NCBI RefSeq assembly: GCF_046105845.1
Contig: NZ_CP151004.1
Origin: Escherichia coli
GTDB taxonomy: Bacteria > Pseudomonadota > Gammaproteobacteria > Enterobacterales > Enterobacteriaceae
DNA length: 64,000 nt
Direction: 5' to 3' (one strand)
Below, in pieces: positions 35,323 through 40,366 of this stretch (the first letter of the stretch is position 1; each line of letters starts with the position of its first letter). A program made the translations under genes and the position numbers. The notes below the pieces were generated by a model, which saw only the letters and a list, made by a program, of their open reading frames with translations, was not told the origin of the DNA and searched no databases.

Positions 35323-35415
35323 GTGTTCTGTCCATCCTTCAGTAATCGTTATCTTTTAAACCGTAGACCGACACCCTATCCACGTCGGTCTACAGTGCAG
35401 GTGAAGCTTAAACTA

Positions 35416-36647: not shown

Positions 36648-39449
36648 TTATTCGACGTTCAGCGCGTCATTAACCAGATCTTGTTGCTGTTTCTGGTGAA
36701 CGGACATATACCCTACCGCCGGAGAGGCGGAGGCCGGGCGGCCTGCATAACGCAGAGAAGCCCCAAACGGAATCACTTCACGGAAATGATGCTGGCTGCA
36801 GTACCATGCGCCCTGGTTGAGCGGCTCTTCCTGGCACCAGACAAAATCCTTGACGTGAGCAAACTGCTGCAACACTTCCTGCATCGCTTTATGCGGGAAC
36901 GGGTAGAGTTGCTCGATACGCACAATGGCGACATCGTGTTGATTGTTCTTACGACGTTGTTCCAGCAGGTCGTAATAAACCTTACCAGAACACATCACTA
37001 CACGCTTAACGCCCTTCGGATCAAGCTCGTCGATTTCACCGATGGCTGGCAGGAAGGTGCCGTTCGCCAGTTCTTCGAGGCTGGAAACCGCCAGCGGATG
37101 ACGCAGCAGGGATTTCGGCGACATCACGACCAGCGGACGACGCATCCCGCGCAGCGCCTGACGACGCAGCATGTGGTAAACCTGTGCCGGGGTAGACGGT
37201 ACGCACACCTGCATGTTTTGCTCAGCGCAAAGTTGCAGATAACGTTCCAGACGCGCGGAGGAGTGCTCCGGCCCCTGCCCTTCGTAACCGTGCGGCAGCA
37301 ACATCACCAGACCACACATCCGGCCCCATTTCTGTTCGCCAGAGGAGATGAACTGGTCGATAACCACCTGAGCACCGTTAGCGAAGTCACCGAACTGTGC
37401 TTCCCAGATAGTCAGAGTGCGTGGTTCTGCGGTGGCATAACCGTATTCAAACGCCAGCACGGCTTCTTCTGACAGTACGGAGTCCCAGACACGAAACGCG
37501 CCCTGACCGTTATGGATGTGTTGCAGCGGCGTGTAAGTGGAACCGTTAGACTGGTTGTGGATCACCGCGTGGCGGTGGAAGAAGGTACCGCGACCGGAGT
37601 CTTCACCCGACAGGCGAACCGGAATGCCTTCGTCAACCAGCGTGGCGTAAGCGAGGTTTTCCGCGCCGCCCCAGTCGAACAGTTTCTCACCAGCTGCCAT
37701 CGCCTGGCGATCGCCATAAATCTTGGCAACGCGAGACTGCATTTCAACTGCTTCCGGCACCGTGCTGATGCGTTTAGCCAGTTCCTGCAGGCGCTTCATC
37801 TCAACTTTGTTCGGGTACTCTTCGTCCCATTCGTGGTTGAGGTACGGCGACCAGGTGAAAGAGTGCATGTTCATCGGACGCCACTCTGCCACTACGCAAT
37901 CGCCAGCATCCAGCGCATCGCGGTACAGGTTAACCATCTCGGTGGCATCTTCGAGCGTCGCCACTTTTTCTTGCTCCAGCTTGTCAGCGTAGATTTTGCG
38001 CGGCGTCGGATGTTTTTTGATTTTCTGATACATCAGCGGCTGAGTTGCGCTCGGCTCGTCGGCTTCGTTATGGCCATGACGGCGGTAGCACACCAGGTCG
38101 ATGAAGACATCACGTTTAAAGGTGTTACGGAAATCGAGCGCCAGACGGGTCACAAAGGCAACGGCTTCCGGATCATCCGCGTTAACGTGGAAAATCGGTG
38201 CCTGAACCATCTTACCGATATCAGTACAGTACGGCGTCGAACGGGCATCCAGCGGGTTAGAGGTGGTGAAGCCAACCTGGTTGTTGATAACGATACGTAC
38301 CGTACCGCCAACTTCATAACCACGCGCTTTCGACATGTTCAGGGTTTCCTGAACCACGCCCTGCCCGGTCACTGCGGCGTCACCATGAATGGTGATTGGC
38401 AGCACTTTGTTGCTGCTCGGCTCATCAAGTCTGTCCAGACGGGCACGAACAGAACCGATAACGACCGGGCTTACAATCTCAAGGTGAGACGGGTTAAACG
38501 CCAGCGCCAGGTGCACCAGGCCGCCATCGGTCTGGAAGTCAGACGAGAAGCCCATGTGGTATTTCACGTCGCCCGTGCCGAGGTGTTCTTTATGTTTACC
38601 GGCAAACTCGTCGAACAAGTCTTGCGGTTTTTTACCCAGCACGTTCACCAGCACGTTCAGACGGCCACGGTGCGCCATCCCGAGAACCACTTCGCGGGTG
38701 CCGCTGTTGCCAGCGTGGCGGATCATCTCTTTAAGCATCGGGATTAACGCGTCACCGCCTTCCAGCGAGAAGCGTTTTGCGCCAGGGAATTTTGCGCCGA
38801 GGTAACGTTCAAGGCCTTCAGCGGCGGTCAGTTCGCTTAAGAAGCGTTTTTTCTCTTCGCTATTGAAAGTCGCGCGACCAGACTCGATACGCTGTTGGAT
38901 CCAGCGTTTTTCTTCGGTGCTGGTAATATGCATATACTCGGCACCAATCGGGCCGCAGTAGGTTTGCTTGAGGGCTTCCAGCAGCTCGCCGAGTTTCATG
39001 GTTTCTTTGCCGCTGGCAAATGAACCGACGTTGAAGGTCTCCTGGAAGTCTGCTTCGGTCAGATCGTGGAAAGACGGATCCAGATCGGCCACTTTATCTT
39101 GCTGCCACAGTCCCAGCGGATCGAGATTCGCATGCTGGTGACCACGGAAGCGGTATGCGTTAATGAGCTGCAGGACTTTAACCTGCTTCACATTGGTGTC
39201 AGGGTCGGAGATCGTTGAAGAGTAACGTGAAGCGTCTTTCGCCAGGCGGCGGAAATATTCACGCGTTTGAGAGTGGAATTGATCCGGTTTGACTCCCGTA
39301 CCAGGTAACTGCTGGAACGTCGAACGCCAGTTAGCGTCAACCGAGTCAGGATCGGTTAAGAAGTCTTCATAGAGCTGTTCTATCCAGCTCTGGTTTGCGC
39401 CAGAGAGGTAAGAAGAGTCCAACCAGGCTTTCAAAGCGCTGTTCTGCAT
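36648..39449 (-). CDS. sucA: 2-oxoglutarate dehydrogenase E1 component
   Basis: 933 aa; matches E. coli SucA. Confidence 0.97.
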
Positions 39450-39619
39450 CGTGATCCCTTAAGCATCTTTTTTATGCTTACTTCGCCGTGGATACTACCA
39501 CGCACAGTGATGTGCGTGCCGGGGTTCACTTGCGAGCTCTTGTCTACGTAGTGGCTCGCGAAGGAACCTTTAAAAACTGTCTTAGTGTCAGGGGCAGTTT
39601 TTAAAGATTTCCTGAATAG

Positions 39620-39636
39620 CCGGGGGATTTCCCCGG
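39620..39636 (-). other. GC hairpin in the sdhB-sucA intergenic region
   Basis: Palindrome ccggggaaatcccccgg (minus strand) 14 nt after the sdhB stop, lacking a U-run. Confidence 0.4.
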
Positions 39637-39649
39637 CATCAACATTTAA

Positions 39650-40366
39650 TTACGCATTACGTTGCAACAACATCGACTTGATATGGCCGATGGCGCGCGT
39701 CGGGTTCAGCCCCTTCGGACATACACTGACGCAGTTCATGATGCTGTGACAGCGGAATACACTGAATGCATCGCTCAAACCGTCGAGGCGGCTGTCAGTC
39801 TCGGTATCACGGCTATCGATCAGGAAACGATATGCCGCTAACAAGCCTGCCGGGCCGATAAACTTATCGGGATTCCACCAGAAAGACGGACAAGAGGTTG
39901 AACAACATGCGCAGAGAATACATTCATACAGCCCGTCGAGTTTTTCGCGCTGCTCTGGCATCTGTAAATGCTCGCGAGCTGGCGGATTTTGTCCATTATT
40001 CAACAGGTAAGGCTTAATTTTCTCATATTGCGCATAGAATTGTCCCATGTCTACCACCAAATCGCGGATCACCGGTAAACCTGGCAGCGGGCGAATCACA
40101 ATCTTCTTGCCCGGCTGGTTGAGTGCCGAAATCGGGGTAATACAGGCCAGACCATTCTTGCCGTTCATGTTCAGACCGTCGGAACCGCACACACCTTCAC
40201 GGCAGGAGCGACGGAACGACAGGCTGGGATCTTTCTCTTTCAGCTGGATAAGCGCATCCAGCAGCATCATGTCACGACCTTCTTCCGCTTCCAGGGTGTA
40301 ATCCTGCATACGCGGAGCATCATCAACATCCGGGTTATAGCGATAAATTGAAAACTCGAGTCTCAT
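39650..40366 (-). CDS. sdhB: succinate dehydrogenase iron-sulfur subunit
   Basis: 238 aa; Cys clusters; matches E. coli SdhB. Confidence 0.97.
   Translation of the reverse strand: MRLEFSIYRYNPDVDDAPRMQDYTLEAEEGRDMMLLDALIQLKEKDPSLSFRRSCREGVCGSDGLNMNGKNGLACITPISALNQPGKKIVIRPLPGLPVIRDLVVDMGQFYAQYEKIKPYLLNNGQNPPAREHLQMPEQREKLDGLYECILCACCSTSCPSFWWNPDKFIGPAGLLAAYRFLIDSRDTETDSRLDGLSDAFSVFRCHSIMNCVSVCPKGLNPTRAIGHIKSMLLQRNA

Follow-up and report, generated by a model that had tools for sequence, protein, structure and literature searches.

Differential expression of genes that share a transcript has a textbook example in the sdhCDAB-sucABCD operon. A 10-kb readthrough transcript was reportedly described by Cunningham and Guest, with Psdh said to be dominant for suc expression. 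The sdhB-sucA junction of K-12 is reported to hold a secondary promoter, and also an internal terminator that lets part of the transcription through (PMC4161252, PMC6393394). According to the passages of PMC9731577 and PMC5371410 that cite Cunningham & Guest 1998, the K-12 sucA leader is cut by RNase III, and sucA is counted among the textbook RNase III sites (PMC5371410). REPs that are similarly placed both stabilise the mRNA upstream of them and serve as partial terminators that depend on Rho, their stabilising effects being context-dependent and not universal (bioRxiv 10.64898/2026.03.23.713779). A REP less than 16 nt away from a stop codon can lower translation, as given in the summary of Liang et al. 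2015 in PMC12306157.

The published transcript work on the sdhB-sucA junction all comes from K-12, an allele without the hairpin H1 that is described here. In K-12 (NC_000913.3), the coverage at position 758,515 is at most 1 read in the wild type versus 305 in an rnc deletion mutant, which is what one expects if the RNA from the stabiliser to the cut is lost after RNase III cleavage. With the end of sdhB presumably at 758,405 and the start of sucA at 758,706, position 758,515 falls in the last REP of the junction, just upstream of the helix H2 described below. The 300-nt gap stated for K-12 in PMC9731577 agrees with these gene coordinates.

Layout of the gap and hairpin H1

The window, that is, the whole stretch of 64,000 nucleotides that was analysed, comes from a non-K-12 E. 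coli and carries sdhCDAB-sucABCD on its minus strand. The sdhB stop codon TAA lies at 39652-39650 (minus strand), as in the RefSeq annotation of the identical sequence in E. coli genomes, and the sucA start ATG at 39447-39449 (minus strand), with the Shine-Dalgarno AAGGGA at 39455-39460. The gap between them, 39450-39649, is exactly 200 nt long, the size that the sequence-only reading of this DNA had given. As a whole, a 211-nt interval folds with -71.1 kcal/mol (z = -5.3) and resolves into five hairpins, H1-H5, which bears out the earlier description of the region as structured.

The 35-nt allele-specific segment TTAAATGTTGATGCCGGGGAAATCCCCCGGCTATT (39615..39649, minus strand) occupies the slot between the sdhB stop and the helix H2 and has no annotated feature. 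It contains H1 (39619..39637, minus strand), a hairpin of seven G:C pairs in which GCCGGGG (39637-39631) is paired with CCCCGGC (39625-39619) around the loop AAAUC (39626-39630). The palindrome ccggggaaatcccccgg (39636-39620, minus strand) begins at the 14th base past the sdhB stop, precisely where it had been placed before, and a flanking G and C extend it to the 7-bp all-G:C stem, which begins at the 13th base and is separated from the stop by 12 nt.

The 38-nt segment with H1 folds with -16.8 kcal/mol (z = -3.75), none of 200 shuffles folding as well, and in a 401-nt context the pair probability is at least 0.987 for every pair of the stem. Perfect 7-bp all-G:C hairpins occur three times in the 64-kb window, H1 included, versus 0.54 expected from shuffles. 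The 3' tail of H1, UAUUCAGG, contains three U in eight nucleotides and no U run, and a terminator scan of the gap returned no terminator-like site, in line with the earlier statement that the hairpin is not a canonical intrinsic terminator. An Rfam search of 39000-40100 gave only two chance-level matches (E = 5-8).

A 14-codon open reading frame, MLMPGKSPGYSGNL, runs through H1 from an ATG at 39645 to a TAA at 39601 on the minus strand. It has no Shine-Dalgarno, its ATG is missing in Citrobacter sp. FP75, and the frame probably exists by chance.

Alleles of the slot in E. coli

In an alignment of the window with four strains, one of them of K-12 type, the part that runs from CAGGAAATC (39614) up to the sucA ATG does not differ from K-12, and the slot (39649-39615), filled by H1 in the window, is in K-12 instead occupied by a BIME of ~135 nt with three REPs, the first starting ~8 nt past the sdhB stop. 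The comparison with K-12 that the sequence-only reading had in mind has two sides, an identical downstream part and a palindrome that K-12 lacks, with the three-REP BIME in its place. Other strains carry longer arrays, in gaps of 311, 361 and 455 nt. Overall, the REP/BIME alleles of the slot range from 1.5 to 4 or more units, and in E. albertii the slot holds four BIME units.

The junction of the window was matched in 5425 of 5426 complete E. coli genomes. The H1 segment is found in 1760 of these 5426 genomes (32%), always unannotated, in single copy and only between sdhB and sucA. A REP abutting the stop with a K-12-type junction is present in at least 3366 of the 5426, and ~300 further genomes, taken as a group rather than one by one, have variant REP junctions. 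An empty slot, with the TAA joined directly to H2, was seen in none of the 5426. Strains with the hairpin allele include E24377A and PCN033, while K-12, REL606 and O157:H7 carry a BIME, that of the latter two being of K-12 type, and E2348/69 has the 311-nt BIME allele. The hairpin allele hardly varies: in PCN033 and EC581, the variants that were sampled, the loop is short of one C and the seven pairs are intact, and one genome has a change that cuts the H1 stem to 6 bp.

H1 shares with REPs and BIMEs an extragenic location between cistrons. It does not match the REP consensus (GCCGGATGCGGCG...CGCCTTATCCGGCCTAC, an imperfect palindrome of ~35 nt) and has only GCCGG/CCGGC in common with the BIME alleles. 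The 38-nt segment occurs once per genome, is absent from genomes without the allele, and has no second copy in the window. That H1 might be a dispersed repeat or a remnant of a REP is ruled out by its single copy and by the related hairpins of genera that lack E. coli REPs.

A similar alternation is seen elsewhere in the same operon. The sucB-sucC gap of the window (35323-35415, minus strand, 93 nt) contains a long hairpin, GUAGACCGAC...GUCGGUCUAC, followed by GGUUUAAAAG, which folds with -22.5 kcal/mol (z = -2.8). In E. coli B REL606 this gap is 365 nt long and holds a REP array between GTAGACCG and CGGTCTAC, and in E2348/69 it has the short form. On these sequences, the sucB-sucC gap repeats the hairpin/REP alternation of sdhB-sucA.

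Conservation in Enterobacterales

Orthologous gaps were collected by a protein-anchored scan, with one genome per species, and by scanning metagenomes for the 3' arm of H2, giving 78 distinct sequences. Among the 63 distinct gaps with a recognisable H2 arm, the slot is 34-453 nt long, with a median z of -5.3 and 95% of the values below -2. In 25 of the 29 named species, the first 80 nt past the stop contain a hairpin that folds with -15 kcal/mol or better, and in most Enterobacterales the first hairpin begins 1-17 nt past the stop.

The occupant of the slot varies between a simple hairpin, a REP of E. coli or other type, and a CCCTCTCCC/GGGAGAGGG palindrome. Palindromes of the last kind fill the slot in Enterobacter, Pluralibacter, Pseudocitrobacter, Phytobacter and similar contigs, and a second copy of CCCTCTCCC...GGGAGAGGG is often present within the apical part of H2. 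Judging from their sequences, these palindromes resemble a further family of dispersed palindromic repeats that was recruited to the same places.

The simple hairpins of Citrobacter sp. FP75, Mangrovibacter, Erwinia, Pantoea, Yersinia and Rahnella have a common core, GGG(G)AA...UUCCC(C). In Citrobacter sp. FP75 and two metagenome contigs the hairpin reads UGCCGGGGAA-GYGA-UUCCCCGGY, and the E. coli H1 looks like this Citrobacter-type hairpin with three loop nucleotides removed. RNAalifold, run on an alignment of 15 sequences, returned 11 pairs, eight of them with compensatory changes; MAFFT shifts some of the orthologous hairpins by one alignment column, and these pair counts are accordingly conservative. 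In the covariation analysis, for which the loci were picked for showing a simple hairpin and are thus biased toward the structure, 88% of the cells are paired and the score is 0.483, compared with 0.192 for shuffles (none of 500 reaching 0.483) and at most 0.215 with slid partners. A lack of conservation, which the sequence-only reading had named among its refuting observations, is not what these comparisons show: the structure is found across Enterobacterales, though the palindrome as a sequence is present in just 32% of E. coli genomes.

As read from the sequences, H1 and its orthologues always lie 3-13 nt upstream of H2. The most economical reading of these comparisons is that H1 represents the ancestral occupant of the slot, and that it gave way to REPs in several lineages, a large part of E. 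coli among them.

Helix H2 and the sucA-proximal part of the gap

H2 (39562..39613, minus strand), which begins 5 nt downstream of H1 in the window, is an A/U-rich helix of about 19-20 bp, formed by AGGAA.UCUUUAAAAACUG and CAGUUUUUAAAGG.UUCCU with a small apical part. It folds with -18.4 kcal/mol (z = -4.5) into 18 pairs around a one-base bulge and so reaches the ~20 bp (two helical turns) of an RNase III substrate. Its arms, AGGAAAYCUYUAAAAACYG and CAGUUUUUAAAGGUUCCUU, recur across Enterobacterales around an apical insert of 4-138 nt. They were recovered, with compensatory changes, in 28 of 29 species, two of these 28 (both Pantoea) having been mispaired by the script. The compensatory changes are exemplified by CUUUAAAAAC/GUUUUUAAAG, CUCUAAAAAC/GUUUUUAGAG and CUUUGAAAGC/GUUUUCAAAG. 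These features make H2 a candidate substrate of RNase III, and of the elements in the gap it best matches the cleavage that is reported for the sucA leader of K-12.

Two further hairpins follow on the minus strand, H3 (CGCGAGC...GCUCGCA, 39532..39559) and H4 (CACGCACA-UCAC-UGUGCGUG, 39499..39518). H3 exists among E. coli and E. albertii in two unrelated versions, each self-complementary, CGCGAGCC...GCTCGCA and GCGGACGC...GTCCGC, the second of which (GCGGAC...GUCCGC in the RNA) is found in other E. coli and in E. albertii. The H4 loop differs by an 8-nt indel between the aligned alleles. K-12 pairs the window-type H3 and H4 with a BIME, a mixture that suggests recombination inside the gap. The small hairpin H5, UAAGCAU-AAAAAAG-AUGCUUA (39460..39480, minus strand, z = -3.2), is placed directly before the sucA Shine-Dalgarno.

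Between H4 and H5, UAUCCACGGCGAA (39482..39494, minus strand) is complementary, as read from the sequence, to the seed of the GlnZ sRNA, 5'-UUGCCGUGGAAA-3' (PMC9731577). The motif CCACGGCGAA (CUACGGCGAA in a few) is common to the 13 fully read Enterobacterales gaps that retain the site. In the window strain, GlnZ probably targets the sucA leader at UAUCCACGGCGAA.

The earlier reading had assumed that the gap also holds a sucA promoter. A scan of the gap for consensus sigma-70 promoters found no site. The sequence TGGTAGTAT (39492-39500) resembles an extended -10 element and is not put forward as one because its conservation in relatives is poor. K-12 has the same 165 nt upstream of sucA, so any K-12 promoter located downstream of the BIME is present here too; a promoter located inside the BIME would be missing from the hairpin allele.

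Proposed function of H1

We consider it somewhat more probable than its alternatives taken together that H1 is the stem-loop that ends the sdhCDAB part of the sdhCDAB-sucABCD mRNA, and that it acts as a 3'-exonuclease barrier, stabilising sdhCDAB mRNA after RNase III cleavage. RNA polymerase would transcribe past sdhB into sucA, and RNase III would then cleave H2, 5 nt downstream of H1, a step for which the cleavage itself was shown in K-12 and the assignment to H2 follows from the fit of the helix. The 3'->5' exonucleases PNPase and RNase II would trim the upstream product back to the stable G:C stem of H1 and stall there. The expected outcome is a stabilised sdhCDAB mRNA with a lifetime uncoupled from that of sucABCD. 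The REP/BIME elements of K-12 and of about two thirds of E. coli probably serve the same role.

Several properties of the locus are in line with this function. As expected of a stabiliser, H1 is a stable stem-loop 3' of the cistron that it would protect, and it is conserved as a structure, with compensatory changes in 8 of 11 pairs. It stands 5 nt upstream of the conserved H2, in a leader for which RNase III cleavage is documented in K-12 and where the cut would most plausibly fall in H2. The barrier may be weak, since the H1 stem has just 7 bp, far less structure than a BIME. Among the roles offered by the sequence-only reading, that of a stabiliser or partial attenuator is favoured by the position of H1 in the REP slot, by the slot never being empty and by the compensatory changes in the stem, while that of an RNase processing element fits H2 instead. 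H1 as an RNase III cleavage site is rejected, 7 bp being far too short.

A broader reading, which we advance tentatively, is that the interval past the sdhB stop is an obligate "hairpin socket", conserved in Enterobacterales and coupled to the adjacent RNase III helix, in which the occupant has been repeatedly swapped. If it is true, REPs would be retained there because they assume an existing structural function, and the natural allele series would adjust the balance of sdh to suc expression from lineage to lineage.

Some pausing of RNA polymerase or leaky termination at H1 is plausible in addition, because the orthologues in Erwiniaceae and Rahnella have 4-5 U past the stem. A somewhat doubtful alternative makes this the main role: H1 would be a leaky terminator or attenuator, either an intrinsic one whose U tract is degenerate or a hairpin that aids Rho through pausing, that sets the flow from Psdh into sucABCD, with exonuclease protection being secondary. 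The orthologues of Erwinia, Pantoea, Rosenbergiella, Rahnella and Klebsiella sp. BIGb0407, in which four or five of the next eight nucleotides are U (CUGUUUCA, UGUUUUAC, GGUUUUAA, UAUUUACU, GUUUUAAA), indeed resemble weak intrinsic terminators. The "internal terminator" with readthrough reported at the K-12 junction (PMC4161252) points the same way, as do the REPs that are partial Rho-dependent terminators at the equivalent place of another operon (bioRxiv 10.64898/2026.03.23.713779). However, a U run is lacking both in the tail of the window, UAUUCAGG, and in the Citrobacter-like orthologues, which have GUGCAGG or UAUGCAGG, and the terminator scan of the gap was empty. RNA-seq 3' ends, for their part, do not tell termination from processing. 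The 10-kb transcript and the dominance of Psdh that were reportedly found for suc would leave room for at most partial termination.

It is unlikely that H1 acts on translation, affecting its termination on sdhB. The hairpin starts 12 nt past the sdhB stop, inside the distance of fewer than 16 nt at which REPs have their effect according to the PMC12306157 summary of Liang et al. 2015, and such proximity is shared by the first hairpin of most Enterobacterales (1-17 nt) and by the K-12 REP (~8 nt). The effect was, however, shown for REPs only, the stems of which are longer than that of H1, and proximity is not universal: in Yersinia artesiana and Y. aldovae the hairpin is 48-55 nt from the stop.

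That H1 is functionless, a neutral relic or one state of a spot prone to recombination or REP insertion, is improbable and already disfavoured: two thirds of E. coli genomes do lack the H1 sequence and one genome has the stem-shortening change, but compensatory changes have kept the stem in several families of Enterobacterales, an empty slot was seen in no genome, and every replacement is a strong hairpin too.

Significance

H1, for which an exonuclease barrier is the preferred function, is in itself an ordinary intercistronic mRNA 3' hairpin in a well-studied regulatory region. What is new here is that it is the conserved and probably ancestral occupant of the slot that K-12 fills with REPs, as judged by comparing the slot between genera. 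The hairpin, short BIME and long BIME alleles, set on near-identical flanks, make a ready natural experiment, and the series could be used to measure what REPs contribute beyond a simple stem-loop to stability, to attenuation and to how the upstream gene is translated. The genes concerned encode two TCA-cycle enzymes, the stoichiometry of which matters.

Comparison with known systems

H1 can be compared with the REP/BIME elements that act as intercistronic 3' stabilisers and partial terminators, such as those of malE-malF, REP325 in yjdMN and the K-12 sdhB-sucA BIME, the last of which occupies the same operon slot. Like them, it is a G:C-rich stem-loop without a U tract, located within 16 nt of the upstream stop, and it is expected to block 3' exonucleases and possibly to attenuate readthrough. 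Unlike them, H1 is single-copy and locus-specific, has 19 nt as opposed to ~35 nt per unit, carries neither the REP consensus nor a GTAG/CTAC tail, and has been retained by common descent in genera to which the E. coli REPs are foreign.

With intrinsic terminators H1 has in common a G:C-rich hairpin right after a stop codon, and its orthologues in Erwiniaceae and Rahnella also have a short U stretch. It differs from them in that its own tail, UAUUCAGG, lacks a U run, falling short of the 4-5 U of such terminators, and in that the downstream genes of the operon need readthrough.

The RNase III helices of the pnp leader, the rRNA spacers and the K-12 sucA leader are the class to which H2, with its ~20 bp, fits, and it is located in the region reported to be cut. 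Unlike these helices, the 7-bp H1 is not a substrate of RNase III and would act after cleavage.
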